Shown piece by piece: positions 8,208-58,074 of a DNA stretch of 64,000 nt. The stretch lies in the NCBI RefSeq assembly GCF_058153355.1, contig NZ_CM177019.1; one strand, written 5' to 3'. The translations under genes and the position numbers were made by a program. The notes below the pieces were generated by a model. That model was given only the letters and a program-made list of their open reading frames with translations. It was not told where the DNA came from and ran no database searches. How positions within the stretch are numbered: position 1 is the first letter of the stretch; the number at the start of each line of letters is the position of its first letter.

Positions 8208-9188
8208 TTACTCTTCGAGCGAATACGGCAGCGGCTCGATATGCAATGTATTCATATCGTCGCGTACGCGGAAGATGCTGTCCGGTTCCATATCGTTATT
8301 CATGACGACCTGTACCACGACCTGACCATCTTCCAGTTTTACCGCAGCCAGCACCGTACCGGTACGACGCCAGTTCTCGCCCATTTTCAGCTCTAAATCT
8401 TCACCCGCTTCCGGCAGTCGGCTGGCGCTACCTGCCAGCAGCCAGAGGGCACGTTTGTTGGCACCGCGGAATTTAGCTCGTGCCACCATCTCTTGTCCGG
8501 TATAACAGCCTTTTTTAAAGCTGATGCCGCCCAGCGCCTGGAGGTTGGTCGCCTGTGGGATAAACTGCCCGCTGTTGGCGGCATCAATCACCGGAAAACC
8601 CGCTTCAATGTTTAATGCCAGCCACTGTTGGCTATTGTTCAGTTCCGCTTCACCGCGCAGTTTATCGGTCAGCGTATTGGCGGTAGCTTCATCGGTTACG
8701 ATCAGGAAACGTTCTGCTGGGTGTTCAAACCATAGCAGGGTAGTCGCACCTTCTCTGATAACCTGCTTTTCCTTCGAAGGTAATTCACTAAAGAGGTTAG
8801 CCAGCGCAGCGCGTGCCTGAAAACCGGCAACACCAAGCAGCACACGTTCATCGTCTGGCGCGATGGTCACTTTAGAGAACACCGCATATTTTTTCAGTTC
8901 AGTCAGTTGCGACTCGCGCACGCTGCGCCGTTCAATCCACGCAAAGCCATCGCCGTCGCGGAACAGACGTAAATTGCTCCACATTTTACCTTTGGCGTCG
9001 CAATGGGCGGCGAGCAGGTGCTGATCTTCTGTCATCTGGCTGACATCTGCTGTCACCTGACCCTGCATATATTTTTCGCTGTCCGTGCCAGTAATGGTGG
9101 CAAGCGCCCAGTCATCAAGCGTCATCAGCGTCAGCGGTAAACGGGCAGAAGCCGTAGGCTGACGGGGAGGAAAAGGTGTAAAAGCCAT
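8208..9188 (-). CDS. ygfZ: tRNA-modifying folate-binding protein YgfZ
   Basis: ORF 8208..9254; start assigned to the internal Met ([34 protein letters not shown]...), 326 aa. Confidence 0.9.
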
Positions 9189-20574: not shown

Positions 20575-21009
20575 CAGTGTTTCTCCTTTCGCCCGCCAGA
20601 GTAAAAAGCAACCGTTTACGTTATTGAAACTGTCTAAACATATGCTCGTGGAGTGCCAGTTTTTGCGAGGAAGGGGAGTTAGAGACAGGAATTGCGGAGG
20701 CAATCACATAATCGTGGTTAAACCACGAAAATGAGAAGAGAACCTGACAATGGAATTATCTGTAATTTTCTCATATTGATATTTTATTAATCATTCTGGC
20801 ATGTCGCACTCTCGCATTTAATCGTTTTTATCTGGATAGCGCTCTTTTGGTCGGCAATGTTGAAATAATGAAAGCGGCACAGATTGAGGGGCAATAATTT
20901 GAACTCAGTCGCAAAATTATAATTAAAACGGTCATGCTACCTAATATATGCCCGTTTATTGCATCGCGAACTTTGAGAAGACATAACTCATTAAATGAAA
21001 GGGATGCAA

Positions 21010-27755: not shown

Positions 27756-30626
27756 TTATATTTTTTCCAGCGCGGTGAGTATTTTCTCCGGTGTGAAATG
27801 CCATTCGCGTAACCAGATGCCGCAGGCATCGTGAATTGCGGTAGCAATCGCCGGAGCTGCGCCATTTACACCGATTTCTGAGATTGATTTCGCCCCGAAT
27901 GGGCCGACTTTATCGTCGCTCGGCACCAGCACAGCGCGGAAATCACGCGGAATGTCACCAATTTTCGGTGCGCCGTAACTGCGTAAATCACGCGTTAACG
28001 GGTGGCCTTCGGCGTCATAAATGATTTCTTCGCTCATACTGTGCCCGATAGCACGCAGGGTGGCTCCGTAGATTTGTCCCAACGCTAACTCTGGATTGAC
28101 CGGTGTACCACAGTCCAGCAAGGCGTAGAATTTATCCAGGCGGATTTCACCCGTACGTGTGTTGACGGCAACTTCAGCAAAGTTTGCGCCATACGGGAAG
28201 GCGAAATCAGGCGTGATATAACTGGCAGTTCCCACCAGTGAACCAAAACCGGTGCCGGTTTCGCCTTTATGGGCAATATCCCCGAAACTAACTTCGCCTT
28301 TCTTGCCGCGCACGACGCCCGGCGTTGCTAGTTGAACATCTGCCACTGGCTCACCCAACATTTGCGCGCCGTGGAACAGAATTTTATCCCGCAGATTTTC
28401 CGCTGCCAAACGCGCCGCGTTACCCGAGAAGCAAGTACCGGACGAGGCATATGCGCCTTTATCAAACAACGCATGATCGGTATCACCGGAGATAACATGC
28501 ACGTCCTGCGGTGGGCAGTGCAGCACTTCTGCTGCCAGTTTCGTCACCACGGTATCCAGACCAGTACCAATATCCGCACCGCCAGAATGAACAATAAAGG
28601 TACCGTCCGATTCCAGTTTAATCATGCAGTTAGCCTGATCGATATCCGGGATCCCCGATTTCTGCATGATAATGGCGACGCCGCGACCGATGTGCCAGTC
28701 ACCATTTTGCGGTTTTGGTGAAGACCATTGGATCATCTCGCGACCCTGACGCAGGATCTCTTCCAGCGCGCAGCTGGCGGCGGAAGGAACGGAGGTCGGC
28801 GCTTTACCTTCACCAATCGCACCGAGAATTTTCAGCTCTTGCCCTTCGTGTACCCGGTTACGTTCGATAATTTCCAGTTGGTCGATCTGTAACTGTTCAG
28901 CCAGTTCCGCTAATGCCATGGTGATAGCGAAGTTACCTTTCGGTGCGCCATAACCCTGATAAGCACCATTTGGGCAAATGTTGCTGTAGTAGGTGGTGAC
29001 CTGGAAATCGACGTTATCGCACGGATATAACGGCAGCGACAGCGCCGGTCCGTTACACGGTACGGTGAGTGAGTGGTTGCCGTAAGGGCCTGTGTTGGCG
29101 CGGAAATCCATCTTCACAGCCGTCAGGCGACCATCTTTCTTTGCCCCCAGTTTGACGGTGACTTTCGCGACGTGACGAGAGGTGTTAGCAATAAACTCTT
29201 CTTCACGGGTGTAGCGGAACAGTACCGGACGCCCGGTCACGCGGGTTGCCCAGGCGCACACTTCTTCCAGCAGGATGTCCTGTTTGGAACCAAAACCACC
29301 GCCTACGCGTTCTTTAATGACATGAACTTTATGTTGTTTCATGCCCACGAGGCGCGCAACCTGGCGGCGCAAGTGCCATGGTACCTGGGTGGAGGCGTGG
29401 ATCACCAGACGGTCGCCATCCATACGGGTAAAGCAGATATGTGTTTCAGTCGGGCATTGCTGCGCCTGAGTTGAGTTATAGGTTCGTTCAATGATCACAT
29501 CGGCATCGGCAAAGCCTTTATCCATATCGCCAATATGACCATGAATACTGGCGGCGATATTTTTACGAGGGCGAGAACCGATAGGGAAGTTGATGATCAT
29601 ATGCTCGCCGCGCTGGGCTGCATGGCTGTTATCGTCTTCCAGAGTGTCTGGCGCACCCGCCACATACACCACCGGTTCATCGTGTACGACAGGCGCATCT
29701 TCCGCCATTGCCTCGTCAATCGACATTACCGGCTTAAGCACTTCATATTCAACGTCGATGAGCTTCAGTGCTTCGAGCGCAATTTCTTCACTTTCAGCGA
29801 CTACCGCAGCAACGCGATCGCCGACGTGACGCATTTTCTTGCCGAACATACGGCGGTCAAGCGGTGACGGTTCCGGTGCGCTCTGACCACCCGGGGTATA
29901 GTAGATATCCGGGCAATTCAGGTGAGTAATAACGTGAACGACGCCCGGTAAGGCTTCAGCTTTGCTGACATCCAGATGAGTAATCAGTGCGTGAGCGTGT
30001 GGGCTACGTAACATTTTAATGACGCAGGCGTCAGCCGTTACGCGGTCTTCAACATAGCAGGGTTTCGCCTGCACCATTTTTGCGGCATCAGTTTTAGGAT
30101 AATGCTTACCAATGACTTCAAGGTCATCGCGGAAAGTCGGAGCGATATCAATGGTGGCCTGCGGGTTATTTTTACGTGCAATTGCCAGTTCAACGACCTG
30201 ATAGTATTGTTGCCAGCCTGCATCGCGACTGAACAAACCAGAAAGCGCGTCGTCGATCTCTTCGCGGGTCGGTGCGGCGATACGCTCGAGCAGATCAGTG
30301 ATAATCAGAGCAGCAGCAGGATCGTTATAACCAGACTGCACCACGCCAACATCAACCATTGCCTGTTGAACCAGACTTAACTCGTTCCATTTTCCCAGAG
30401 ACTCTGCCGTACGAATATCAGCCTTCTCTATCTGTGCGGCAATAAGTAAGGACGCGTTAACGATATTACCGTTAAAGATAATTGCGTCAGAACCGGCAAA
30501 CCCGAATCCATCATCGCTGTTGCGTACAGAGTGCATTCCCATGTTAAACAACAGCTTTTGCACGTTTTCGCCTGGATTAACGGTTAGCTCCTGAGGCGCG
30601 CCATTTAAAGTAAAGTGGATGATCAT
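27756..30626 (-). CDS. xdhD: molybdopterin-dependent hydroxylase, large subunit with N-terminal 2Fe-2S domain (xanthine dehydrogenase family)
   Basis: 956-aa ORF MIIHFTLNGAPQELTVNPGENVQKLL..., recognised as XdhD (YgfN). Confidence 0.9.
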   Translation of the reverse strand: MIIHFTLNGAPQELTVNPGENVQKLLFNMGMHSVRNSDDGFGFAGSDAIIFNGNIVNASLLIAAQIEKADIRTAESLGKWNELSLVQQAMVDVGVVQSGYNDPAAALIITDLLERIAAPTREEIDDALSGLFSRDAGWQQYYQVVELAIARKNNPQATIDIAPTFRDDLEVIGKHYPKTDAAKMVQAKPCYVEDRVTADACVIKMLRSPHAHALITHLDVSKAEALPGVVHVITHLNCPDIYYTPGGQSAPEPSPLDRRMFGKKMRHVGDRVAAVVAESEEIALEALKLIDVEYEVLKPVMSIDEAMAEDAPVVHDEPVVYVAGAPDTLEDDNSHAAQRGEHMIINFPIGSRPRKNIAASIHGHIGDMDKGFADADVIIERTYNSTQAQQCPTETHICFTRMDGDRLVIHASTQVPWHLRRQVARLVGMKQHKVHVIKERVGGGFGSKQDILLEEVCAWATRVTGRPVLFRYTREEEFIANTSRHVAKVTVKLGAKKDGRLTAVKMDFRANTGPYGNHSLTVPCNGPALSLPLYPCDNVDFQVTTYYSNICPNGAYQGYGAPKGNFAITMALAELAEQLQIDQLEIIERNRVHEGQELKILGAIGEGKAPTSVPSAASCALEEILRQGREMIQWSSPKPQNGDWHIGRGVAIIMQKSGIPDIDQANCMIKLESDGTFIVHSGGADIGTGLDTVVTKLAAEVLHCPPQDVHVISGDTDHALFDKGAYASSGTCFSGNAARLAAENLRDKILFHGAQMLGEPVADVQLATPGVVRGKKGEVSFGDIAHKGETGTGFGSLVGTASYITPDFAFPYGANFAEVAVNTRTGEIRLDKFYALLDCGTPVNPELALGQIYGATLRAIGHSMSEEIIYDAEGHPLTRDLRSYGAPKIGDIPRDFRAVLVPSDDKVGPFGAKSISEIGVNGAAPAIATAIHDACGIWLREWHFTPEKILTALEKI

Positions 30627-35882: not shown

Positions 35883-36203
35883 AACCCTCTCCTTAGCTTA
35901 TACAGATATCATTGAGTGACCGGTGTTGAGAAATCCGGTGGTTTAGGGGGATAAAGCAACAATCGCACCACTCTTGCCAGGTTTGGCGGGAAATATAAAA
36001 AAATGTGAGGCGGCTCGAAACTTAAGGGCTTTTTGTGAATGAACTCACAGGTGCCAAATGAGAATTAAAATCACTCCTGGAAATTATTATTACCAGCCCA
36101 TTTATCACTTTTTCTCTTTTCTCAAAATCAGTGATTCCTTATCATAATGATAAAGCAGGCTGGATGGTTTAGATATTTGAACGCAAACGTTTAACTACGT
36201 TTT

Positions 36204-36884: not shown

Positions 36885-37655
36885 GTGAAAAGTATAGTTG
36901 ACCCATCGGCATTATTCATTGATTTAGGCGCGCAGAAACGTTCCACTGTGATTTCTGTTGTTGGGGCTGGGGGGAAAACCAGCTTGCTTTTTTGGCTGGC
37001 AGAGCTGCTCCAGTCTAGCGGCAGGCGTGTGTTAATCACTACGACGACACATATGTTTATGCCAACGTCTCACTGGCCCGTGGTTTTCTGTCGTGATCCC
37101 GCCATGCTTCCTCATGCGTCTCTTACATCCCCCATTTCATTTTGTTTTCACAGCTGGAAAGCGAACCAGGGAAAAGTGCAGGGATTTATGCCAGAAGCGA
37201 TTGATGCACTGGTGCAACGACCAGAGTGTGACGTAATTCTCATTGAGGCAGATGGCTCGCGTGGAATGCCGTTAAAAGCGCCTGATGAGCACGAACCTTG
37301 CATACCCAAAAGCAGTTGCTGCGTGATTGCTGTGATGGGAGGACATATTTTGGGTGCGAAAGTGAGCACAGAAAATGTCCATCGCTGGTCGCAGTTTGCT
37401 GATATTACCGGGTTAACACCTGATGCAACCTTGCAACTGAGCGATCTCGTTGCGCTGGTTCGCCACCCTCAGGGCGCATTTAAAAACGTACCGCAAGGTT
37501 GTCGGCGAGTCTGGTTCATTAACCGTTTTTCTCAATGTGAGAATGCGATTGCGCAAAGCGAGCTCCTTCAACCGCTGCAACAACACGACGTAGAGGCAAT
37601 CTGGCTGGGCGATATACAAGAACATCCTGCAATCGCGCGCAGATTTGTGAATTAG
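36885..37655 (+). CDS. yqeC: selenium-dependent hydroxylase accessory protein YqeC
   Basis: 256-aa ORF with P-loop-like VVGAGGKTS; recognised as YqeC. Confidence 0.85.
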   Translation: MKSIVDPSALFIDLGAQKRSTVISVVGAGGKTSLLFWLAELLQSSGRRVLITTTTHMFMPTSHWPVVFCRDPAMLPHASLTSPISFCFHSWKANQGKVQGFMPEAIDALVQRPECDVILIEADGSRGMPLKAPDEHEPCIPKSSCCVIAVMGGHILGAKVSTENVHRWSQFADITGLTPDATLQLSDLVALVRHPQGAFKNVPQGCRRVWFINRFSQCENAIAQSELLQPLQQHDVEAIWLGDIQEHPAIARRFVN

Positions 37656-39368: not shown

Positions 39369-40301
39369 TTACTGACAAATCACCGTTCCGGTTTTGCCTT
39401 CAATCCCTTCTTTCGCTTTGCTCAATACGGTAATCAGTGCTTCGCGTCCAGCGCGAGAGCGAGCAAACGAGGCGGCTGCTTCCACTTTAGGCAGCATAGA
39501 ACCTTTCGCAAAATGACCTTCTTCGATAAAGCGTTCAGCATCACTTAATGACAGGCGATCGAGCCACTGTTCGTTCTCTTTACCGAAGTTAATGGCCACT
39601 TTTTCTACCGCAGTCAGAATGATCAGCATATCGGCATCAATCATTTCTGCTAAACGGGCGCTGGCCCAGTCTTTATCAATAACCGCGCTGGCACCACGCA
39701 GATGGTTACCTTCACGAATAACAGGAATACCACCACCGCCAACGGTGATCACCACCTGGCCTGCTTCTACCAGCGCTTTTACCGTCTCTTTTTCAATGAT
39801 ATCAACCGGTTTTGGTGAAGCAACAACACGACGATAGCCGCGACCAGCATCTTCTTTCAGGGTGTAGCCCTGTTTTGTCAGAAGTTCAGCTTCCTGCTCG
39901 GTAAAGAACGAACCGATCGGTTTGGTCGGGTTGAGGAATGCCGGATCGTTAGCGTCGACTTCGACCTGGGTCACCAGAGTGACAACGGGTTTATGAATGC
40001 CACGGGAGAGCAACTCTTCCCTTAAGGCGTTTTGTAGATCGTAACCAATATAACCCTGGCTTAAGGCAACACAGACGGACATCGGCAGCATTGGCGAGTG
40101 CGCTTCAGTTTTTGCCGCGGCTTCAAAGGCCTGGTTAATCATGCCTACCTGCGGCCCGTTACCATGAGTGACGATGACCTCATGTCCCTGGGCAATTAAA
40201 TCAACAATTGCCTGAGACGTAATTTTTACCGCTTTCATTTGTCCGGCTAGATCGTCGCCCAGCGCATTCCCGCCCAGGGCGAGAACAATTTTCTTACTCA
40301 T
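39369..40301 (-). CDS. yqeA: carbamate kinase-like protein
   Basis: 310-aa ORF MSKKIVLALGGNALGDDLAG..., amino acid kinase family. Confidence 0.9.
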   Translation of the reverse strand: MSKKIVLALGGNALGDDLAGQMKAVKITSQAIVDLIAQGHEVIVTHGNGPQVGMINQAFEAAAKTEAHSPMLPMSVCVALSQGYIGYDLQNALREELLSRGIHKPVVTLVTQVEVDANDPAFLNPTKPIGSFFTEQEAELLTKQGYTLKEDAGRGYRRVVASPKPVDIIEKETVKALVEAGQVVITVGGGGIPVIREGNHLRGASAVIDKDWASARLAEMIDADMLIILTAVEKVAINFGKENEQWLDRLSLSDAERFIEEGHFAKGSMLPKVEAAASFARSRAGREALITVLSKAKEGIEGKTGTVICQ

Positions 40302-40348: not shown

Positions 40349-41734
40349 TTAGAGCACGGGAGGGACAAACGGTTTGCGTCGCAGGAAACGACCTCGCCCG
40401 GCTTTGCCTGTAAAGGTGCCGTCACAGAAAATCGTTTCACCACGGGATAATGTTCTGACAATCGCGCCCTGACAGGTAAACCCCTCCCAGGGCGAGTAGT
40501 CGGCGTTGTCGTGGAGATGGCGATGCTGAATTTGTTGGCTCTGACGTGGGTCGATAATCACCACGTCACCATCGGAACCGGGTGCTAATATCCCTTTTTG
40601 CGGCCACAGGCCAAACAGCCTGGCGGGCATTGCGCTGGTTAGTTCAACAAAACGCTCCGGTGTGATACGTCCCGTCATCACGCCACTGGAAAACAGTAAC
40701 TGCATGCGGTTTTCCACACCGGGTAAGCCATTTGGGCAGCGACTGAAATCGCCTTTAGAAATTTGCAGGCGTTGAGCCATCGAGAAGGTGCAGTGATCGG
40801 TCGCCACCACGTCAATCGCACCATCGCTGATGCCACACCACAGTTTGTCCTGCTCGCGTACGTTACGCAGCGGTGGGCTAAGAATGAACTTCATGCCATC
40901 TTCTGTATCGTAACTGCGTTCGTCCAACAGGAGATATTGTGGGCAGGTTTCAACCCAGACTGGCTGGTGATTCGCACGGGCAAGACGCAGATAATCCAGA
41001 CCTAAGCCGTTAGAGAGGTGGACGATATAGAGCGGGGCGTTACCGGCAATTTGTGCCAGGTTAATCATGCGTGCGATGGCTTCCGCTTCGCATTCCAGAG
41101 GGCGACTCAAGGCGTGATAGCGCGGCGCGGTTAACCCTGCGGCAATAAACTCCGCCCGCTTGCTGGCGATAGCCGCGTCATTTTCCGGGTGCACGGTGGT
41201 CAGTGCGCCAGACTCATGCAAGCGGCGTAATGCCTGCAACACTTCATCATCGTTGAGTTTATATTGATAGGTTAAATAGAGTTTAAAACTGCTCAGCCCT
41301 TCTTCGACCATCATCGGAATTTCGTCGAGGATGGCGTGATTAATGTGCTGGATAACACCGTGAAAGCTGTAGTCAATAACCGCTTTATGGGCGGCATAGC
41401 CACGATAAACTTCCAGTTGATGGCGTAACCGGCAGCCATTTGGTCCAAATCCCATATGGTCAATAATGGTTGTTGTACCGCCACACGCAGCTGCGCGGGT
41501 ACCGGTAAAAAAATCATCACAACTGCGCGCGATGCCGACATCAATATTGAAGTGTGTATGGACATCTACGCCGCCAGGGAAAACGTAACAGCCAGTAGCA
41601 TCAATTTCTTCATAAGGGAGCTGCGGCGAAATATCGGTGCCCAACTGGCGAACAATCCCGCTTTCAATCAGCAAATCCTGTTTGGCTTGTCCATCTGCGT
41701 TAACGATAGTGCCGTTTTTGATCAATACGCGCAT
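40349..41734 (-). CDS. hyuA: D-phenylhydantoinase (dihydropyrimidinase family)
   Basis: ORF 40349..41746; start assigned to the internal Met (MRVLIKNGTIVNADGQ...), 461 aa, amidohydrolase HxH motif (DVHTHF). Confidence 0.9.
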   Translation of the reverse strand: MRVLIKNGTIVNADGQAKQDLLIESGIVRQLGTDISPQLPYEEIDATGCYVFPGGVDVHTHFNIDVGIARSCDDFFTGTRAAACGGTTTIIDHMGFGPNGCRLRHQLEVYRGYAAHKAVIDYSFHGVIQHINHAILDEIPMMVEEGLSSFKLYLTYQYKLNDDEVLQALRRLHESGALTTVHPENDAAIASKRAEFIAAGLTAPRYHALSRPLECEAEAIARMINLAQIAGNAPLYIVHLSNGLGLDYLRLARANHQPVWVETCPQYLLLDERSYDTEDGMKFILSPPLRNVREQDKLWCGISDGAIDVVATDHCTFSMAQRLQISKGDFSRCPNGLPGVENRMQLLFSSGVMTGRITPERFVELTSAMPARLFGLWPQKGILAPGSDGDVVIIDPRQSQQIQHRHLHDNADYSPWEGFTCQGAIVRTLSRGETIFCDGTFTGKAGRGRFLRRKPFVPPVL

Positions 41735-41786
41735 AGCAAACTCCAAAAACCCTCCGGCGAACCGGAGGGGAATAAGTGAAGAATAA

Positions 41787-42998
41787 TTATTCGGTTGCCA
41801 GCCAGCTTAACGGGATTGCAGCGTACATAGCGGCACAGGTCACCAGGTGAGATTTCCAGGTTTTTTCGTTAGGTGCGTGCGCTTCAGGTTCTTTACCAGG
41901 GCCAAAACCGATCACCGGAATGCCGTGACGACCCATGATGGAGACGCCGTTAGTTGAGAAGGTCCACTTATCAACAACCGGCGCTTTGCCAAACAGCCCT
42001 TCGTAGGCGTTTACCAGGGCTTTAACAGTGAAGTGATCTTCTTCCACTTTCCAGGTCGGGAAGTAGCATTCGGTTGGGTAAACCAGGCCAGTCCAGGAAG
42101 GACGGTCGTAGTTGTACATAGAAACAACCGCGTTAGCTTTCTGTACCGCAGGCAGGGCGCGGATTTCGTCCAGCGCGCCTTCCCAGGTTTCGCCCCAGGT
42201 CAGACGACGGTCAATTGAAACTGCGCAGCTGTCTGCTACAGCGCAACGGCTTGGAGATGTGAAGAAGATTTCAGAAACGGTGAGGGTGCCTTTGCCGAGG
42301 AATTCGTCATAGCCCAGGCGCTGGGAGAGTTCCTGCAATTCGCCAAGAATCGGACCCATTTTGAAAATGGCGTTATCACCGCGTTCTGGCGCAGAGCCGT
42401 GGCAGCTAACGCCCTGAACATCAATGCGAATTTCCATACGACCGCGTTGACCACGATATACCTGGCAGTCGGTTGGTTCGGTACTGACCACAAATTCCGG
42501 GCGAATGCCAGATTGTTCAATAATGTACTGCCAGCACAGACCGTCGCAGTCTTCTTCCTGCACAGTGCCGGTGACCAGCAGGGTGTATTCATCTTCCAGA
42601 CCGAGGTCTTTAATGATTTTACCGGCATAAACCATAGATGCCATGCCGCCTTCCTGGTCGGAAGTACCACGGCCGCCGATCAGCTCATCAGTTTCCATGC
42701 CTTCGTACGGATCGAAGTCCCAGTTTTTGATGTTGCCAATGCCGACGGTGTCGATATGCGCGTCCATCGCCACCAGACGCGGGCCGTGACCGATATAACC
42801 GAGCACGTTGCCCATCGGGTCGATTTCAACTTTATCGAAGCCGACTTTTTCCATCTCTTCTTTAATACGATGCACTACGCGTTTTTCGTCGCAGCTTTCG
42901 CTGGGGATCGCAACCATGTCGCGCAGGAAGCGAGTCATGTCTGCCTGGTAATCTTTTGCTTTTTCAAGAATCAGTTTGAATGGAATATTCTTAGCCAT
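41787..42998 (-). CDS. ygeY: M20-family peptidase/amidohydrolase YgeY
   Basis: 403-aa [30 protein letters not shown]... Confidence 0.9.
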
Positions 42999-43055: not shown

Positions 43056-44252
43056 TTAAGGTGCTACAGAGTGTTTGCCTTCCCAGACAACTTCGCGGTA
43101 GTGCTTCACGTCGGTGTCGCCTTCAGTGCTGATAACCAGCACCACTGCATCTTTGTTCAGCGCCAGTTTTTCCATCAGGCTTTGACGTTGCGGGTGATAA
43201 TGAACCGCCGCGAGAACGCCTAAACCGACAGCGCCGGATTCACCGGAGATGATGCGCGGGTCGTTGCCGTACGGATTACCCAGCACGCGCATACCTAATG
43301 CGGCAACGCTGTCCTGGCAGGAGATGAATTGGGTGGCGCAGTTACGTAGGATTTCCCAGCCCAGTGGGTTAGGTTCGCCGCAAGCCAGGCCCGCCATGAT
43401 AGTGGCCATATCGCCGCCAACGTTGACGATGTCGCCTTTGACACCAGAACGATAGATACAGTCAGCTTTGTCAGGTTCAACAATAATGCTGTGCAGATTT
43501 TGCGGGCTGTAGACGTCGACCAGATAACCCAGCACACCACCGGCCATAGCACCGACACCGGCTTGCAGCAGAACGTGCGTCGGGGTTACGCCCATTTCAC
43601 GCATTTGCTCTACGGCTTCATCTGCCAGGGTGGCGTAACCTTGCATGATCCAGGTTGGGATTTTGGTGTAGCCTTCCCTGGCGGTATCTTGCACCACTTC
43701 CCAGCCGTGTTGCTGCGCGTGTTGCATGGTCAGACGAACGGTATCGTCATAGTTCATATCAGTGACGATGCACTCGGCTCCGAGGTTCAGAATGGCGTCA
43801 ACGCGTTCCTGAGCGGAACCTTTCGGCATGTAAATTACCGCGTTCTGACCGAGTTGCTGTGCTGCCCAGGCAACACCGCGCCCGTGGTTGCCGTCGGTCG
43901 TTGTAGCAAATGTCATTTTTTCGCCGATGGCATTTTTCAGATGCTCGAATGACAGTGTTTCGATATCAAGATGATATTTTTCGCACAACAACTGAGCGAT
44001 GGCATATGCGCCGCCGAGCATTTTGAATGCGTTCAGACCGAATCGTTTTGATTCGTCCTTAACGAGAATTTTTTTTACCCCAAAAAGGTTTGCGAGATCG
44101 TCCAGCGCGCAAAGTGGTGTTGGGCGATAGCCAGCAATTTTCTGGTGGAACTGGCGCGCCAGTTTTGCCTGGCTTTGCGAAAAGAGCGGTGATGTTTCGC
44201 CGTTGAAAAATTTGTTATCGGCGATATCAATCTTCAATGAGAAAACGGACAT
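43056..44252 (-). CDS. dpaL: 2,3-diaminopropionate ammonia-lyase (PLP-dependent)
   Basis: 398-aa ORF recognised as YgeX; PLP fold type II. Confidence 0.9.
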   Translation of the reverse strand: MSVFSLKIDIADNKFFNGETSPLFSQSQAKLARQFHQKIAGYRPTPLCALDDLANLFGVKKILVKDESKRFGLNAFKMLGGAYAIAQLLCEKYHLDIETLSFEHLKNAIGEKMTFATTTDGNHGRGVAWAAQQLGQNAVIYMPKGSAQERVDAILNLGAECIVTDMNYDDTVRLTMQHAQQHGWEVVQDTAREGYTKIPTWIMQGYATLADEAVEQMREMGVTPTHVLLQAGVGAMAGGVLGYLVDVYSPQNLHSIIVEPDKADCIYRSGVKGDIVNVGGDMATIMAGLACGEPNPLGWEILRNCATQFISCQDSVAALGMRVLGNPYGNDPRIISGESGAVGLGVLAAVHYHPQRQSLMEKLALNKDAVVLVISTEGDTDVKHYREVVWEGKHSVAP

Positions 44253-44310: not shown

Positions 44311-45501
44311 TTATTTCACGCGTTCTTGCGCTTCTTTCAGCAGTTGTTCGAGCAGTGCGCCTGGTTTGGAATATTTACGGGAAAGGATCATTGCTGCGAT
44401 GATGTATGGCTTCCAGCTGGCTTCTTTGTAGGTCGCGATACGGTATTTTTCGAATACGCCTTCAGTGACTTCACCTTCTTTGCAGGATACGCCGCTGATA
44501 TCTGCTGGCAGGCAGTGCATGTACAGGGCTTCGCCATCACGGGTCAGTTCCATCATCTCTTCAGTGCAATGCCAGTCTTTGTGTTGCGCGTTCTGTGCCA
44601 GACACTGTTTTTCCAGTGCTTTTAAGCCTTCGTGATCGTTCGCACGCAGCAGTTCAGTACGCTCTTCCATCACTTTGTAAGGTGCCCATGACTTCGGATA
44701 AACGATGTCTGCGTCTTTGAAGGCTTCTTCCATGCTGGTGACCTGACGGAAGCTACCGCCAGAGGCTTTAGCATTATTTTTCGCTACTTCAACTACATCC
44801 GGGATCAAATCGTAGCCTTCCGGATGGGCCAGGGTGACGTCCATACCGAAGCGGGTCATCAGGCCGATAATGCCTTGCGGTACAGAGAGCGGTTTGCCGT
44901 AGCTTGGGGAGTATGCCCAGGTCATGGCGATTTTTTTACCTTTCAGGTTTTCGAGCGAACCAAAGTGTTCACGCAACCATGCCAGGTCAGCCATTGACTG
45001 AGTCGGATGGTCGATATCGCATTGCAGGTTCACTAAAGCCGGACGCTGTGGAAGCACGCCCTGCTTGTAGCCGTCATCAAGCGCAGCGCCAACTTCACGC
45101 ATATAGGCGTTACCTGCGCCCAGATACATATCGTCACGAATACCAATAGCGTCGGCGCAGAAGGAGATCATATTGGCGGTTTCACGTACGGTTTCGCCGT
45201 GAGCGATTTGTGATTTGCCTTCGTCGAGATCTTGCTGTGCAAGGCCGAGCAGGTTAAGCGCGGAAGCATAAGAGAAGCGGGTACGGGTGGAGTTGTCGCG
45301 GAATACGGAAATACCTAATCCACTATTAAAGACTTTGGTTGAGATGTTTTCAGCACGCAGTGCTTTTAATGCTGCGGCAACGTCCAGTACTTGTTTCAGT
45401 TCATCAGGCGTCTGTTCCCACGTTAACAAAAAATCTTTCTCGTGAAGGTGAGAGGTCAGCGAATTGATATCCTTAATCAGCTCATTAACAGTTTTCATCA
45501 T
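44311..45501 (-). CDS. ygeW: carbamoyltransferase YgeW (aspartate/ornithine carbamoyltransferase family)
   Basis: 396-aa ORF with STRTR carbamoyl-phosphate-binding motif. Confidence 0.9.
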   Translation of the reverse strand: MMKTVNELIKDINSLTSHLHEKDFLLTWEQTPDELKQVLDVAAALKALRAENISTKVFNSGLGISVFRDNSTRTRFSYASALNLLGLAQQDLDEGKSQIAHGETVRETANMISFCADAIGIRDDMYLGAGNAYMREVGAALDDGYKQGVLPQRPALVNLQCDIDHPTQSMADLAWLREHFGSLENLKGKKIAMTWAYSPSYGKPLSVPQGIIGLMTRFGMDVTLAHPEGYDLIPDVVEVAKNNAKASGGSFRQVTSMEEAFKDADIVYPKSWAPYKVMEERTELLRANDHEGLKALEKQCLAQNAQHKDWHCTEEMMELTRDGEALYMHCLPADISGVSCKEGEVTEGVFEKYRIATYKEASWKPYIIAAMILSRKYSKPGALLEQLLKEAQERVK

Positions 45502-45976
45502 AAAGTCCCGGTAGTGGAATGACAGGCAAAGTGGTTTATTTCACTGTGACTTGCCAAAGTGATTGGTGTTTTCACAGCTATACCAGGGACTAACAATAAG
45601 TGTGCCAGAATTATCCACGCGGCTATAAAAGACTAATTTGACGGGTAATGTGTGGTGTAGATCACAAATTGATGCCAGCTTCCGGTTGTGTGTAAAATAC
45701 GAAAACGTTTGGCTTTTTTTATTGCGTTGTTTATTTGCTGCTAAGTATCAGAAATAAGATAAAGGGGCAGGCTATCCCTCGTCAGTTTGATAAACTCACC
45801 GCTGTAATTCTCATATTGATATAGAAATGTGATATCTCTTCCATAATTTCATTAGAAAGTGATAAAAACCTTATGTTTTTATCAAAGCCAATTTCGCCTG
45901 AGTTAATATCATGATGATCTGTGAACCATCAACGTCTTCAATGATCGACTTTTAAGTAAGTCTGGAAGGTAAAGCT

Positions 45977-47755
45977 ATGGAGCTTGCTACTACGCAGTCA
46001 GTATTGATGCAAATTCAACCGACAATTCAGCGTTTTGCCAGAATGCTTGCCAGCGTTTTGCAGCTTGAGGTTGAGATCGTTGATGAAAACTTGTGTCGCG
46101 TCGCCGGAACGGGCGCGTATGGGAAGTTTCTTGGCCGCCAGTTGAGCGGCAACTCACGCCTGCTCCGCCACGTCCTGGAAACGAAAACTGAAAAAGTTGT
46201 GACACAGTCTCGCTTCGATCCCCTTTGCGAAGGTTGCGATAATAAAGATAATTGTCGCGAAAAAGCATTTCTGGGTACGCCTGTCATTTTACAGGATCGT
46301 TGTGTTGGGGTGATAAGTTTGATTGCAGTTACCCACGAGCAACAAGAACATATCAGTGATAATTTACGCGAGTTTTCTGATTACGTTCGCCATATATCCA
46401 CCATTTTTGTTTCGAAACTTCTGGAAGATCAGGGACCAGGAGATAACATCAGTAAAATATTTGCGACCATGATCGATAATATGGATCAGGGCGTTTTAGT
46501 TGTTGATGACGAAAATCGGGTTCAGTTTGTTAATCAGACTGCCTTAAAAACACTCGGTGTTGTGCAAAATAATATTATTGGGAAACCTATTCGTTTCAGA
46601 CCATTAACATTTGAGAGTAATTTTACCCATGGACATATGCAGCATATTGTTTCGTGGGACGATAAAAGTGAATTAATCATTGGTCAATTACATAACATTC
46701 AGGGCCGACAATTATTTTTAATGGCGTTTCACCAATCGCATACCAGTTTTTCTGTAGCAAATGCACCTGATGAACCGCATATTGAACAATTGGTTGGCGA
46801 GTGCCGTGTTATGCGGCAATTAAAACGACTCATTAGCCGTATTGCACCCAGCCCATCCAGCGTTATGGTGGTTGGTGAAAGCGGCACGGGTAAAGAAGTC
46901 GTCGCGCGTGCAATCCATAAGTTGAGTGGAAGACGAAATAAACCCTTTATTGCTATCAACTGTGCCGCGATTCCTGAACAACTTCTGGAGAGCGAACTAT
47001 TCGGTTATGTTAAAGGCGCATTTACTGGCGCTTCAGCCAACGGTAAAACAGGGTTGATTCAGGCGGCGAATACGGGCACGCTGTTTCTCGATGAAATTGG
47101 TGATATGCCATTAATGTTGCAGGCTAAATTACTGCGCGCTATTGAGGCGCGTGAAATACTGCCGATTGGTGCCAGTAGCCCAATTCAGGTCGACATCCGT
47201 ATCATTTCTGCAACTAACCAGAATTTGGCCCAGTTCATCGCCGAAGGTAAATTCCGCGAAGATCTCTTCTACCGACTTAATGTTATCCCGATCACTCTTC
47301 CACCGCTGCGTGAACGTCAGGAAGATATTGAACTGCTGGTACATTACTTTTTACATCTGCATACCCGTCGTCTGGGATCGGTTTATCCGGGTATTGCTCC
47401 CGATGTCGTCGAGATATTGCGTAAGCATCGTTGGCCCGGAAACCTGCGCGAGTTAAGCAATTTAATGGAATATCTGGTTAACGTTGTTCCTTCAGGTGAA
47501 GTTATCGACAGCACGCTATTGCCGCCAAATTTGCTGAATAATGGCACAACAGAGCAAAGTGATGTAACAGAGGTCAGCGAGGCGCACTTGACACTCGATG
47601 ATGCGGGCGGCACGGCGCTGGAGGAGATGGAAAAGCAAATGATCCGCGAGGCACTTTCACGTCATAACAGCAAGAAGCAAGTTGCTGATGAACTGGGTAT
47701 CGGCATTGCTACGCTCTATCGCAAGATAAAGAAATATGAGTTGTTAAACGCATAA
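45977..47755 (+). CDS. ygeV: sigma-54-dependent transcriptional activator YgeV
   Basis: 592-aa ORF with AAA+ sigma54-interaction domain (VVGESGTGKEVVARAIH, GAFTGA) and C-terminal HTH. Confidence 0.92.
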   Translation: MELATTQSVLMQIQPTIQRFARMLASVLQLEVEIVDENLCRVAGTGAYGKFLGRQLSGNSRLLRHVLETKTEKVVTQSRFDPLCEGCDNKDNCREKAFLGTPVILQDRCVGVISLIAVTHEQQEHISDNLREFSDYVRHISTIFVSKLLEDQGPGDNISKIFATMIDNMDQGVLVVDDENRVQFVNQTALKTLGVVQNNIIGKPIRFRPLTFESNFTHGHMQHIVSWDDKSELIIGQLHNIQGRQLFLMAFHQSHTSFSVANAPDEPHIEQLVGECRVMRQLKRLISRIAPSPSSVMVVGESGTGKEVVARAIHKLSGRRNKPFIAINCAAIPEQLLESELFGYVKGAFTGASANGKTGLIQAANTGTLFLDEIGDMPLMLQAKLLRAIEAREILPIGASSPIQVDIRIISATNQNLAQFIAEGKFREDLFYRLNVIPITLPPLRERQEDIELLVHYFLHLHTRRLGSVYPGIAPDVVEILRKHRWPGNLRELSNLMEYLVNVVPSGEVIDSTLLPPNLLNNGTTEQSDVTEVSEAHLTLDDAGGTALEEMEKQMIREALSRHNSKKQVADELGIGIATLYRKIKKYELLNA

Positions 47756-51418: not shown

Positions 51419-51872
51419 GCATGATTCACCCGTAGCGGTTGCTTCCCGCGCTTCCATAGAAATCCCCTCGATTTGAACATTTGGTTCTTATGGCAAAGAT
51501 TTAGTCTAAGCAGGCAAGATTTACGCCAGAAACGACGATAAACGTTAGGGGAGGAAGGAAGTGTGATGACGTTAAAAAAATACAGATACGATACGAAACA
51601 GGACTTTGAATAGGGACAGTGATACGTATCAATATGAGTGGCGATAAAATCAATGTGATAAATTAGGATTATTACGCATCAGGATGGGAAATAGGGTAAA
51701 AGAGTCAGGAACTTCGATACCACCACAGCAAATATTTTGCTTATGATACTTCCCTTTGCCAAATGAAATTAATCTCTTTCTCAATTACCTCGTTTTTCCA
51801 GAAGCGAGAGATTGGGTATCAAGAGGCTGGCTGCTATGATATGGCGTCTTGTTTTTTAAGCGAGGAAAGATT

Positions 51873-52706: not shown

Positions 52707-52780
52707 GCGGGCGTAGTTCAATGGTAGAACGAGAGCTTCCCAAGCTCTATACGAGGGTTCGATTCCCTTCGTCCGCTCCA
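52707..52780 (+). tRNA. glyU: tRNA-Gly (anticodon CCC)
   Basis: 74-nt sequence gcgggcgtagttcaatggtagaacgagagcttcccaagctctatacgagggttcgattcccttcgtccgctcca with cloverleaf arms and encoded CCA; the island starts immediately 3' of it. Confidence 0.92.
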
Positions 52781-55485: not shown

Positions 55486-55563
55486 TTAAATGGCTACGGG
55501 GCCAGAAGCCCCAGCTATCCACCAGCAAATAAAAAGTAACTTAATTCGATAGCAGGAGTTTTT

Positions 55564-56364
55564 ATGAAATTTCCAAAAACGCCCATACAGGGGCAGGGCT
55601 TCGTTCGGCTTGAAAACCAGAATCTGCAAAATTTTGGCAAAATTATCCCGGTTATTTCCGGCGTTATTGGCGGGCGTGAAACCAATATTGTTAGCGCCAG
55701 AGCGTTGCATAAGGCGCTCGGGGTAGGCCGTGATTTCACAACCTGGATTAAAGTACGCATTGATGAGTACGGATTTAAAAAGGGCGTGGATTTTGAATTC
55801 GTAGAAAATTTGACCTCCCCCAATCCGGTGAGCGCAAAATCTCGCCAACGTATAGAGCACGACTACCTGAGCACTATCAACATGGCGAAAGAACTGGCGA
55901 TGGTCGAACGCACCGAACAGGGCCGCGCCGTTCGTCAGTATTTCATCAAATGCGAGGAGGAGCTACACAAGGTAGCGCCTGTGCGTTCCGCAGCGTTACG
56001 CCGGGAACTGAAAGCCCGTATCACTGTTGCCAGCTACTTTAAGCCAATGTGCGCCGCGCTGGAGGCGTACCGGGCAGAACTGGGTAAAAACACTCTACAG
56101 CACCACTACACCACGGAAGCTAATATGCTGGCGCGTATCGTGCTGGGTGGCATGACTGCAAAACAGTGGGCACTGGCGAACGGCATCACAAGCGAACCAC
56201 GCGACCACATGAGCACGTTGCAGCTTGAGCACCTTTCTTACCTTGAGCAGAGCAATATCACGCTGATTGAGTTAGGCCAGGACTACCACCAGCGGAAAGC
56301 TGAATTAATTCGTCTTTCGCAGCGCTGGTTAGCCCGTCGCATGGAGGAAAACAACCATGTGTAA
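55564..56364 (+). CDS. phage antirepressor-like protein (AntA/KilAC-type domains)
   Basis: 266-aa ORF with SD aggag; N-terminal region resembles AntA/Bro-type antirepressor domain; assignment by recall, moderate confidence. Confidence 0.6.
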   Translation: MKFPKTPIQGQGFVRLENQNLQNFGKIIPVISGVIGGRETNIVSARALHKALGVGRDFTTWIKVRIDEYGFKKGVDFEFVENLTSPNPVSAKSRQRIEHDYLSTINMAKELAMVERTEQGRAVRQYFIKCEEELHKVAPVRSAALRRELKARITVASYFKPMCAALEAYRAELGKNTLQHHYTTEANMLARIVLGGMTAKQWALANGITSEPRDHMSTLQLEHLSYLEQSNITLIELGQDYHQRKAELIRLSQRWLARRMEENNHV

Positions 56365-57018
56365 CGCTCTGACCGTTACAAAAAGAGAAAGCGCCCCGTT
56401 GCCGGAGCGCCTTTGTGAACGAATAGCCTACTGCGCCATATTGCTTACTGTCTACGAGGCAGATTATAGCGTTGTGGTCGCACAGAGTGAAGGCACTGAT
56501 CACCGTTACTACAGCACGCCAGAAATGCAGAATATTTTGCTGCAAAATGCCGCTGGCCACGCTGTCCGGAAAGCAAAAAATTTTGCTGGTGGCGCGACTG
56601 ATACGATTTTTTCTGGTCGCCAGGTGCTGATCAATCTGATGTCTGATTTCGTTCTGGATAAAACAAAGGCGACCGCAGAGGGCCACCAGTGGGAAAGCTA
56701 CACACTTGAACACATCGCCAACAATGCCAGATTTGCGGCTGGTGGGCAATGTGATCAGTGTGTTGGCTTGCTGGTGGGCTGTTCGTCTGGTTCAGTCCGT
56801 TGCCATGCATGGAGTGAACGCATTTTCCAGGAATACTCTTTGAGGTACTTCTCAAGAGCAAACGCACACGGGGCGAATCTCTCCGGTTCATGTTCGTTTA
56901 CCGCATTTTTGCGTTGTTTTTTCCTGGATGAGGATAATTTCTTTAATGATTTGTCAGTCATCGTATATACCTGTAACCCTGTGCGCCACAGTTCACTGCA
57001 CCACGGCGCTGATGGTGA

Positions 57019-57198
57019 TTACTCTGATTCTTTGGCCTTGCGGCGCTGGCGGCGTTTGATCTCACCTTCAAGTGCCGAAACGATAAATTGTCCAGTGCTT
57101 TCGCCTTCTTCCTTTAAACTTTCTACAGCGTCAGCTATTGCATGGGGTACTCGTGCCTCAAGTTTTTTTGATTTTCCATTAACTGCTTTCGTTGCCAT
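57019..57198 (-). CDS. ribbon-helix-helix (CopG/Arc-like) DNA-binding protein
   Basis: 59 aa MATKAVNGKSKKLEARVPHAIADAVESLKEEGESTGQFIVSALEGEIKRRQRRKAKESE; beta-strand then two helices typical of RHH; SD aaggga upstream; divergent from the promoter at 57260-57288. Confidence 0.6.
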   Translation of the reverse strand: MATKAVNGKSKKLEARVPHAIADAVESLKEEGESTGQFIVSALEGEIKRRQRRKAKESE

Positions 57199-57219
57199 AT
57201 CTGATTCCCTTGTTATTAG

Positions 57220-57299
57220 GTGGCTGACAGTATACACACAAGAAAATGGAAAAACACTATTGACGTGGCTGACACCTGTTACTAGTATAGTGGCTGACA
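57220..57299 (+). promoter_or_regulatory. near-consensus sigma70 promoter (TTGACG-17 bp-TAGTAT) overlapped by three direct repeats GTGGCTGACA
   Basis: -35 ttgacg 57260-57265, -10 tagtat 57283-57288; direct repeats at 57220-57229, 57265-57274 and 57290-57299. Confidence 0.6.
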
Positions 57300-57562
57300 C
57301 CTTTATTAAGGTAATCGATGAAAAGACAAAGCCCGCAGGCGCTACCAACACCAACGGGCTTCTAACCACCAACGATAGAAAGCGTATCGAGGTAGCTATG
57401 TTAAATCATACCACACACCCGCAAGGGCGGGACTCGCACAACCTGAATAAAGCGGGGGTAAAAAACCAGTTGATCGCCACTGCCAGCCAGGGCTATGATT
57501 TATCTGCACCAGCAAAATCTGGTGCCCGGATTGGCGTCCTGAAAATTCTGAAGGCGACATAT

Positions 57563-57584
57563 GACGCGCCGAGCGTCTTTTTTT
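57563..57584 (+). terminator. intrinsic terminator-like hairpin plus T-run inside the leader downstream of the promoter
   Basis: gacgcgccgagcgtc (5-bp stem) followed by ttttttt. Confidence 0.45.
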
Positions 57585-57787
57585 ATGTCGTAGGTCTGAC
57601 TCACCCATTTTTTGGGCGTTGGTGTATAATCCAGCGCCTTTGTCAATCAATGGTGGCTCAGGCGGGGGCTTCTTCGGAAGCGCCGGTATCCTTCAGAGCC
57701 GGTTACGCCAACCCTGTCTGGGCTACCACCAGCGAAATTGGCGTTTCCGGTGGTAGCGTAACCTGCTATCTGAAGGAGGCTGCCGAC

Positions 57788-57976
57788 ATGGCTACTACCC
57801 CTACCCTTGTACATTCTCAAACCGTCTTTCTCTGGCGCTTTATCGCCCTGAGCACAGCACAACCGCGCGTGATTCACATCGTGGCCACCAGCGAACAGGA
57901 AGCCCGCCAGCAATCTCCGGCTGGCTGCGTGATGGTATTCGCCGCCCGTATTCGTCAGGAGGTGGGCCATGATTAA
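57788..57976 (+). CDS. small hypothetical protein (62 aa) of the island early operon
   Basis: ATG 57788 preceded by SD gaaggagg; stop overlaps the next start (atgattaa). Confidence 0.55.
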   Translation: MATTPTLVHSQTVFLWRFIALSTAQPRVIHIVATSEQEARQQSPAGCVMVFAARIRQEVGHD

Positions 57977-58074
57977 TCTGTCACTTACCGACCTTAACCG
58001 TAAGCGTCTTATCAGGACCGTCTGGCAAATTCCCGATGCTTTGGACAAAGTATCCACCACTAAATTAATAGTGG

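Follow-up and report, generated by a model that had tools for sequence, protein, structure and literature searches.

The window analysed here, a stretch of 64,000 nucleotides, belongs to an Escherichia coli strain that is not K-12; across the region its sequence matches strain 2013C-4282 completely (100% identity) and most genomes at 95-99% identity. Within it, the genes ygeV and ygeW are divergent and lie 476 bp apart, and the 475-bp spacer between them contains a sigma-54 promoter element, here called PygeW, on the same strand as ygeW. The genes and hairpins around this element are the following:

45977 to 47755, plus strand: ygeV (isrR), divergent gene for a sigma-54 enhancer-binding protein (open reading frame, RefSeq, domains)
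44311 to 45501, minus strand: ygeW, knotted carbamoyltransferase of the reductive uric-acid pathway, first gene of the promoter
43056 to 44252, minus strand: ygeX/dpaL (open reading frame, RefSeq)
41787 to 42998, minus strand: ygeY (open reading frame, RefSeq)
41750 to 41769, minus strand: terminator-like GC-rich hairpin with a T run, between ygeY and hyuA
40349 to 41734, minus strand: hyuA (open reading frame, RefSeq)
39369 to 40301, minus strand: yqeA/arcC (open reading frame, RefSeq)
39362 to 39337: strong terminator-like hairpin after yqeA/arcC, stronger than the one between ygeY and hyuA

The function of ygeW has been described previously (PMC12507026; bioRxiv 10.1101/2025.04.24.650524). 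Its open reading frame begins at the first of two ATG codons, at 45501, and RefSeq annotates the second one, at 45498. Genes ygeW, ygeX/dpaL and ygeY are co-directional, with gaps of 57-58 bp, and are certainly served by PygeW. An earlier note on this DNA had proposed a ygeW-ygeY-hyuA-yqeA operon. Such an operon also holds ygeX (dpaL), and the hairpin at 41769-41750, where the ygeWXY unit may end or be attenuated, precedes hyuA-yqeA, so that expression of this last part may depend on read-through. Read-through probably does reach hyuA and yqeA, given that they fall in the same iModulon (see below) and that no other sigma-54 site lies ahead of them.

On the minus strand, PygeW reads TGGCAC (45607-45602), ACTTA (45601-45597) and TTGTT (45596-45592). 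This direct reading agrees, in letters and in coordinates, with the near-consensus TGGCAC-actta-TTGTT reported in the earlier note, and the distance to the ygeW start, put there at about 95 bp, was measured as 91-106 bp from the ATG at 45501. Compared with the consensus TGGCAC-N5-TTGCW, PygeW shows a single mismatch, a T for C at the -12 position, while the spacing is correct and both the GG and the -13 G are present. The GG of the -24 element occupies 45606-45605; in the -12 region (TTGT), the G is found at 45594 and the T instead of C at 45593. The promoter and the start site predicted from it are:

45592 to 45608, minus strand: sigma-54 promoter PygeW, CTGGCACACTTATTGTT, a 17-mer consisting of TGGCAC-ACTTA-TTGTT plus one C ahead of it (45608-45592), assigned by identity to ChIP-seq site OS30, top PSSM score and conservation in orthologues
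45581, minus strand: predicted transcription start, placed 12 nt after the -12 position, which would give an 80-nt leader

The 80 nt between 45581 and the ATG at 45501 equal the "Distance" given for ygeW in Table 1 of Bonocora et al. (PMC4591121), and the same 12-nt rule also yields the value of 84 given there for xdhA. The leader has no Rfam match (riboswitch or sRNA), and its predicted fold is not significant (z = -0.7).

Binding of sigma-54 to exactly this sequence was already on record (PMC4591121; PMC8743547), which supports the sigma-54 promoter that had been proposed for ygeW from the letters alone. Since PygeW has been published before, the promoter as such is not novel. Indeed, ChIP-seq site OS30 (Bonocora et al., 2015, PLoS Genet, PMC4591121) corresponds to CTGGCACACTTATTGTT, with ygeW as the downstream gene, a distance of 80 and a FAT score of 3, and the published 17-mer was checked and found identical to positions 45592-45608 of the window. 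This site is presumably one of the 8 novel intergenic sites of that study, since it had no earlier EcoCyc entry. The ygeV/ygeW spacer also gave a sigma-54 holoenzyme gSELEX peak, of 53-55% (Shimada et al., 2021, PMC8743547). OS30, the gSELEX peak and PygeW are the same object, with the same 17-mer, orientation and 80-nt distance to ygeW. The published data, obtained on an identical sequence, show CTGGCACACTTATTGTT to be bound by the sigma-54 holoenzyme, as a closed complex, both in vivo and in vitro. Both studies demonstrated sigma-54 binding alone, the activator, the enhancer and transcription being outside their results. Regarding the activator, YgeV has been inferred from transcriptomic co-variation to activate a "YgeV iModulon" comprising xdhABC, ygeWXY, hyuA, ygfK, ssnA, ygfM, xdhD, ygfT and uacT (Lamoureux et al., 2023, PMC10602906), a paper in which sigma-54 promoters ahead of xdhABC and ygeWXY are cited to Reitzer and Schneider (2001). 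A search of the literature found no report of YgeV or rpoN dependence of ygeW transcription, and no mapped ygeW start site or YgeV DNA-binding site.

Taken alone, the consensus match is not significant: the loose consensus, allowing at most 1 mismatch, has 4 matches in the 64-kb window versus 3.19 expected. As a plain consensus search is uninformative, it was replaced by a PSSM built from the 41 other intergenic E. coli sigma-54 ChIP-seq motifs of Bonocora et al., with ygeW left out. By this leave-one-out matrix, CTGGCACACTTATTGTT reaches 16.1 bits (training median, 15.95 bits), the highest score on both strands of the 64-kb window, where 0.225 equally good sites are expected. Moreover, a 31-mer spanning PygeW is identical in 4857 complete E. 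coli genomes. For wider comparison, a scan for YgeW with one genome per species provided 80 loci, 41 of them proteobacterial and 39 from other phyla. Nearly all proteobacterial loci (Enterobacterales, Aeromonas, Photobacterium, Endozoicomonas and betaproteobacteria) have just one TGGCAC-N5-TTG element, which precedes ygeW by 82-158 nt (245 nt in one case), whereas the 39 loci of Riflebacteria, Bacteroidota, Lentisphaerota and other phyla have neither ygeV nor a sigma-54 element upstream of ygeW. When each locus is represented by its best sigma-54 score in the 300 nt ahead of ygeW, the median is 15.4 bits for the 41 proteobacterial loci versus 1.7 for the 39 others (Mann-Whitney p = 8e-15). In an alignment of the spacer from 18 genera, TGGCA..TTATTG is invariant and its flanks are variable.

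The departure from consensus at -12 is conserved as well. In 39 proteobacterial orthologues, the -12 pentamer is TTGTT (21), TTGAT (12), TTGGA (5) or TTGAG (1), so that the consensus C is found in none of the 39 and TTGC never occurs. A C occupies this position in 38 of 42 E. coli intergenic ChIP sites (PMC4591121). The missing C does not disqualify PygeW, since pspA, pspG and hydN also lack it, and pspA and pspG are functional promoters (PMC4591121). This conserved avoidance of C at -12 is one of three useful additions made here.

The 18-genus alignment revealed a second conserved block, around 45840-45785, whose core is a palindrome. The earlier note had suggested looking for enhancer sites in the spacer, and this palindrome, conserved and common to all four sigma-54 promoters of the cluster, is what the search turned up. 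The sites concerned are:

45807 to 45823: candidate YgeV UAS, palindrome TATATCAATATGAGAAT with core TATCA-ATA-TGAGA (conservation, PWM, DioR motif)
45778 to 45794: weaker flanking UAS-like site TTTATCAAACTGACGAG (9.0 bits by the UAS PWM)
45860 to 45884: distal inverted repeat TGATAAAAAC-N5-GTTTTTATCA (sequence; partly conserved in the 18-genus alignment)

The candidate UAS is centred at about -234, 214 bp upstream of the -24 element. Its form is TATCA-ATA-TGAGA in E. coli and TTATCA-N3-TGATAA in most genera, and in nearly all proteobacterial loci it precedes the -24 element by 141-244 bp (213-217 in most Enterobacteriaceae). A Comamonadaceae (betaproteobacterial) locus has a second pair of palindrome and promoter adjoining ygeV. 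The flanking site TTTATCAAACTGACGAG contributes a conserved TTATCA half-site, invariant in the 18-genus alignment, 29 bp promoter-proximal of the main palindrome. The distal repeat TGATAAAAAC-N5-GTTTTTATCA has TGATA/TATCA half-sites at another spacing, about 100 bp upstream of the ygeV ATG, and is possibly used for ygeV autoregulation. A Fur box was also considered as the identity of the palindrome and rejected, the 10-12 matches out of 19 being within the random background.

Unlike the promoter consensus, the palindrome stands out from chance. TATCAWTATGAKA with at most 1 mismatch has 6 matches in the window (5 distinct sites) versus 0.15 expected, and four of the five distinct sites are located upstream of predicted starts, namely those of xdhA (131 bp), ygfT (199 bp), ygfK (202 bp) and ygeW (234 bp). 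A UAS PWM trained on non-E. coli orthologous sites only ranked the sites of ygfK (24.1 bits), ygfT (20.95) and ygeW (20.91) as the top three in the window; for the shuffle maximum, the 95th percentile is 16.4 bits. The sister promoters and their associated sites are:

51513 to 51529, minus strand: xdhABC sigma-54 promoter CTGGCGTAAATCTTGCC (ChIP-defined)
51625 to 51641 and 51646 to 51662: two UAS-like palindromes of xdhA, 21 bp apart (UAS PWM)
35955 to 35971, minus strand: ygfK sigma-54 promoter GTGGTGCGATTGTTGCT (ChIP-defined)
36138 to 36154: ygfK UAS, perfect palindrome CTTATCATAATGATAAA (UAS PWM rank 1)
36034 to 36049: perfect CRP consensus of ygfK, centred at -97.5
20947 to 20963, plus strand: ygfT sigma-54 promoter TATGCCCGTTTATTGCA (ChIP-defined)
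20767 to 20783: ygfT UAS palindrome, its 15 central bases identical to those of the ygeW site
37286 to 37302: validated sigma-54 promoter inside yqeC, with a CRP consensus at about -78.5

The promoter inside yqeC responds to nitrogen limitation (PMC4591121). A strong PSSM match at 28176-28192, inside xdhD, is absent from the ChIP sites. From the presence of the same palindrome at the xdhA, ygfK and ygfT sigma-54 promoters, we infer that the whole purine/urate cluster forms one YgeV regulon.

The activator gene is intact. YgeV contains PAS, Sigma54_activat, AAA lid and HTH_8 domains, with intact GAFTGA and Walker A motifs, in line with its identification as an enhancer-binding protein in the earlier note. 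A divergent ygeV lies upstream of ygeW in 31 proteobacterial loci. The protein has been renamed IsrR, as an indole-induced regulator of virulence genes (PMC9426417). Among NCBIfam models, YgeV passes none, the best match being PrdR, below cut-off. No PSSM match to a sigma-54 promoter of ygeV itself was detected on the plus strand between the palindrome and the ATG.

A first homologue search with YgeV returned near-identical E. coli proteins only; a search of 1.8 billion representatives returned many full-length relatives with 35-41% identity. One of them, P0128, is 39% identical over YgeV residues 1-586, and the segment of its HTH recognition helix, LGIGIATLYRKI, is identical to that of YgeV. 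It is encoded on a contig of 29% GC and adjoins dpaL-, ygeY- and uacY-like genes, a context of the type found with DioR (named proteins CBO2889, CTC00072 and CD3186), the predicted activator of sigma-54 regulons of Clostridiales (GAF-PAS-AAA+-HTH_8, with GAFTGA; Nie et al., 2019, BMC Genomics, PMC6615313). This contig has palindromes at 8970 and 8989, about 95 bp ahead of TGGCTT-N5-TTGCT, and a further two upstream of the activator gene. The Cys-rich domain at the N-terminus of YgeV is conserved as far away as Clostridia. In a second homologue context, the contig ends right after the gene, with three palindromes at its 3' edge. The predicted DioR targets are ygeW-ygfK-ssnA-ygeY, dpaL-pbuX-pyrC, yqeC-ygfJ-yqeB-xdhC and xdhABC (PMC6615313), and the UAS sites in the supplement of that paper include ATTTATCATAATGATAAGG, TATTATCATTTTGATAATA and AATTCTCGTATTGATAAAA, all three of which show the same palindrome as the PygeW UAS. 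By the proteobacterial matrix with an AT-rich background, 9 of the 12 published DioR UAS sites score at least 11.9 bits (p about 3e-5 per 17-mer). As judged from these sequences, YgeV is very probably a DioR family member with the same enhancer specificity. The promoter element, the activator gene and the palindrome are thus conserved together across proteobacteria, and they match the Clostridial regulon of the same pathway. The link between YgeV and DioR suggests a single regulatory module that has spread across phyla along with the pathway. A second addition is an explicit candidate YgeV enhancer, common to the four purine/urate promoters and identical in motif to that of DioR.

Between the enhancer and the promoter, the spacer has a CRP-like site:

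45651 to 45666: CRP-like site TGTGATCTACACCACA (minus strand), TGTGA-N6-CCACA, 1 mismatch, centre at -77.5

Of 36 orthologous loci, 25 have a CRP-like site between -76.5 and -78.5 (Enterobacterales and Aeromonas); as background, any site with at most 2 mismatches turns up in about 9% of 140-nt windows taken at random. The ygeV/ygeW spacer has been noted previously to contain a native Crp site; wild-type urate degradation is repressed by glucose, and this repression is relieved once constitutive promoters replace the spacer (PMC12507026). From glucose repression alone, we infer a positive role of CRP at PygeW. No IHF consensus with at most 1 mismatch was found between enhancer and promoter (45600-45830), which makes CRP the likely bending protein. 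The position-conserved CRP site is another of the three useful additions, all of which are directly testable. A consensus scan of the DNA ahead of ygeW, a weak test in itself, detected no suitably placed sigma-70 -35/-10 pair. A class II sigma-70 arrangement using TATAGC at 45627-45622 was checked by hand and discarded as poor and not conserved. A PurR-operator-like box, ACGAAAACGTTTGGCT, is also present in the spacer (45699-45714), and ygfK and uacT are preceded by boxes of a similar kind (3 versus 0.62 expected).

PygeW is best explained as the RpoN promoter of ygeW-ygeX-ygeY(-hyuA-yqeA), in the anaerobic uric-acid (2,8-dioxopurine) pathway, and it is likely that YgeV, acting at the palindrome, activates sigma-54 polymerase there with CRP as a co-regulator. 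According to this model, transcription would start near 45581 and would require the divergently encoded AAA+ activator YgeV. YgeV would bind the palindrome TATCA-N3-TGAGA at 45807-45823 (about -234), and possibly weaker flanking sites too, and would meet the polymerase through DNA looping, ATP hydrolysis then opening the promoter. CRP-cAMP, at a fixed -77.5 between enhancer and promoter, would probably provide a bend and couple expression to carbon status, and the sub-consensus -12 would weaken the closed complex. The purine/urate cluster as a whole may form a single YgeV regulon mirroring the Clostridial DioR regulon. The role of YgeV as likely ygeW activator, put forward in the earlier note, finds support in the architecture, in iModulon membership and in the shared palindrome, up to the grade of a likely reading. 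Against it stand the low ChIP occupancy (FAT 3), the -12 without the consensus C and the rather distant enhancer (-234), which is 162 bp from the ygeV ATG and could serve ygeV autoregulation as well, or instead. In addition, the iModulon does not include ygeV, and its activity is tied to ethanol in baeR/cpxR knockouts, not to urate (PMC10602906).

The activator could instead be another enhancer-binding protein, such as NtrC under nitrogen limitation, in which case the palindrome would belong to a different regulator or serve ygeV autoregulation only. Such a reading would fit the nearby promoter inside yqeC, with its response to nitrogen limitation, the position of the palindrome, nearer to the ygeV start than to PygeW, and the literature, in which the search found no direct experiment on YgeV and ygeW. 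However, the palindrome is neither an NtrC site nor a Fur box, it recurs at three sigma-54 promoters away from ygeV, it accompanies ygeV and ygeW throughout gamma- and betaproteobacteria, and it matches the UAS of the homologous Clostridial regulon, all of which makes a different activator improbable.

It is likewise quite improbable that ygeW is expressed mainly from a CRP-dependent sigma-70 promoter, with the bound sigma-54 holoenzyme either standing by or acting as a brake. The sigma-54 element is invariant, but the stretch that separates it from the CRP site is not conserved. The distance from the CRP centre to that element is fixed, and the Photobacterium and betaproteobacterial loci retain the sigma-54 element and the palindrome without a CRP site. 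The consensus scan described above, with no usable sigma-70 -35/-10 pair upstream of ygeW, points in the same direction. These observations have to be set against the conserved upstream CRP site, the glucose repression of the pathway, the weak sigma-54 occupancy (FAT 3) and the usual role of CRP as an activator of sigma-70 promoters. Finally, non-functional sigma-54 binding, the "biological noise" proposed for part of the 135 ChIP sites, has in its favour the low FAT score, a consensus match that alone is not above chance and the absence from the ChIP sites of the strong match inside xdhD (28176-28192). It is very improbable, however, for a correctly oriented intergenic site, 80 nt from the start codon, that has kept its sequence and position, along with an activator gene and an enhancer motif, in about 40 genera.

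Beyond activation by YgeV, a more tentative proposal, for which the chances appear somewhat less than even, is that PygeW and the promoters of ygfK and inside yqeC share an unusual sigma-54 design in which CRP replaces IHF and the -12 element is sub-consensus. In such a design, CRP-cAMP bound at about -77.5 or -97.5, on the same helical face, may loop the DNA as a positive co-activator, and the weak -12 may have been selected for a weak closed complex that is doubly dependent on YgeV and CRP. If true, this would, combined with the YgeV palindrome, provide a complete and testable wiring for the switch-on of anaerobic uric-acid degradation in gut Enterobacteria. The ygeW operon and its neighbours encode the anaerobic uric-acid (2,8-dioxopurine) pathway, recently solved in gut bacteria. 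This pathway bears on human urate disposal and on engineered probiotics for gout. One group swapped this very spacer for constitutive promoters because its native regulation was poorly understood (PMC12507026). The layout defined here offers targets for mutation: the YgeV palindrome at -234, the CRP site at -77.5 and the weak -12 element.

Among known systems, the DioR regulon shares both pathway genes and activator architecture with the YgeV cluster; the study that described it (Nie et al., 2019, PMC6615313) mentions neither YgeV nor E. coli. In the DioR regulon and in the YgeV cluster alike, TTATCA-N3-TGATAA is located 100-250 bp upstream of a sigma-54 promoter. They differ in that the Clostridial promoters show the canonical TTGCT at -12 and usually a pair of palindromes spaced by about 19 bp, whereas PygeW combines TTGTT with a single strong palindrome and a CRP site.

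Catabolite control of a sigma-54 operon was reportedly the subject of work by Lee, Newman and Keasling in 2005, in J Bacteriol, on prpR-prpBCDE of E. coli and Salmonella. Like PygeW, this system combines a divergent gene for a ligand-sensing activator, not a response regulator, with a sigma-54 catabolic operon and an input from cAMP-CRP. It differs in its sensor domain and UAS and in that prp uses IHF, the role of CRP at PygeW being the one suggested above. With regard to the -12 element, pspA and pspG are well-characterised sigma-54 promoters that, like PygeW, have a T for C (TTGTA), but their activator is PspF, their regulon is a different one and they depend on IHF.

Parallels for CRP-cAMP acting upstream of a sigma-54 closed complex are glnAp2, dctA and Pu, which illustrate the mostly inhibitory role of CRP at sigma-54 promoters (PMC3900584). 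Whereas CRP inhibits these three promoters, glucose repression suggests a positive role at PygeW, and whereas their CRP sites are weak or absent, that of PygeW is a good consensus conserved in position.

Further candidate regulatory sites of the purine cluster are located in the window as follows.

Candidate regulatory sites (window coordinates)
45699-45714, PurR-operator-like box in the ygeW regulatory spacer
36181-36196, PurR-operator-like box in the ygfK regulatory spacer
20606-20621, PurR-operator-like box in the uacT/ygfT regulatory spacer
36034-36049, perfect CRP-like site TGTGAATGAACTCACA, at -97.5 of the ygfK promoter
37227-37242, CRP-like site TGTGACGTAATTCTCA, at about -78.5 from the yqeC-internal sigma-54 promoter
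43962-43978, YgeV/DioR palindrome match (17.1 bits), coding, within ygeX/dpaL
37528-37544, YgeV/DioR palindrome match (16.1 bits), coding, within yqeC

The PurR-like boxes (core AAACGTTT / AACCGTTT) each deviate from ACGCAAACGTTTGCGT by 3 mismatches, and 3 were found against 0.62 expected. Conservation of the ygeW box is limited to the E. coli / Citrobacter / Atlantibacter / Trabulsiella clade. These boxes may represent a purine-repressor input to the purine catabolic cluster. Regarding the CRP-like sites, their spacing at the ygfK promoter and at the yqeC-internal promoter, which had already been published (37286-37302, plus strand), is equal to that at the ygeW promoter or two helical turns off.

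Of the two strong palindrome matches, the one in yqeC follows the yqeC-internal sigma-54 promoter at a distance of about 230 bp, and the one in ygeX is shared with Kosakonia. The locus from a Comamonadaceae MAG (L075, 6910-7032) carries a second palindrome, TATCAATCTGATA, identical to that of the L075 ygeW promoter. With a score of 18.3 bits, a strong sigma-54 element (CTGGCACGATTTTTGAA) lies 106 bp downstream of this palindrome and is oriented divergently to ygeV; the available locus ends before the gene downstream of this element. The enhancer half-sites recur in a perfect 10-bp inverted repeat at 45860-45884 (TGATAAAAAC-N5-GTTTTTATCA), which precedes the ygeV ATG by about 100 bp and may constitute an autoregulatory operator; autoregulation has been predicted for dioR of Clostridia. 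The repeat adjoins a conserved TAATAT/TAGTAT block (45904-45909), a possible -10 element of ygeV.

Within xdhD, about 530 bp upstream of xanQ, the sequence ATGGCGCAAACTTTGCT (28176-28192, minus strand; 15.6 bits) ranks second among the sigma-54 PSSM matches of the window. This match is absent from the published ChIP-seq sites (Bonocora 2015, PMC4591121), and is either unbound or was overlooked by ChIP-seq. Between ygeY and hyuA, the minus strand at 41750-41769 reads CCCTCCGGTTCGCCGGAGGG and then TTTTT, a terminator-like hairpin on account of which the five-gene string may comprise two units or an attenuated operon.

Beyond a tRNA-Gly(CCC) gene (52707-52780) come genes for GH15 and for a GhoT/OrtT-family toxin, together with an ETT2-type type III secretion cluster (onwards, about 55500-64000); in the matching strain, YscQ of this cluster is frameshifted and SpaN truncated. 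The region is an island border adjoining the purine cluster.

The sigma-54 promoter of ygeW has T, A or G at -12 (window 45593 and the equivalent positions in the orthologous loci L002-L075), and the consensus C occurs in 0 of 39 proteobacterial orthologues. This pattern suggests that the consensus -12 is selected against at this promoter. In contrast to these C-less proteobacterial promoters, the Clostridial counterparts exhibit the canonical TTGCT.
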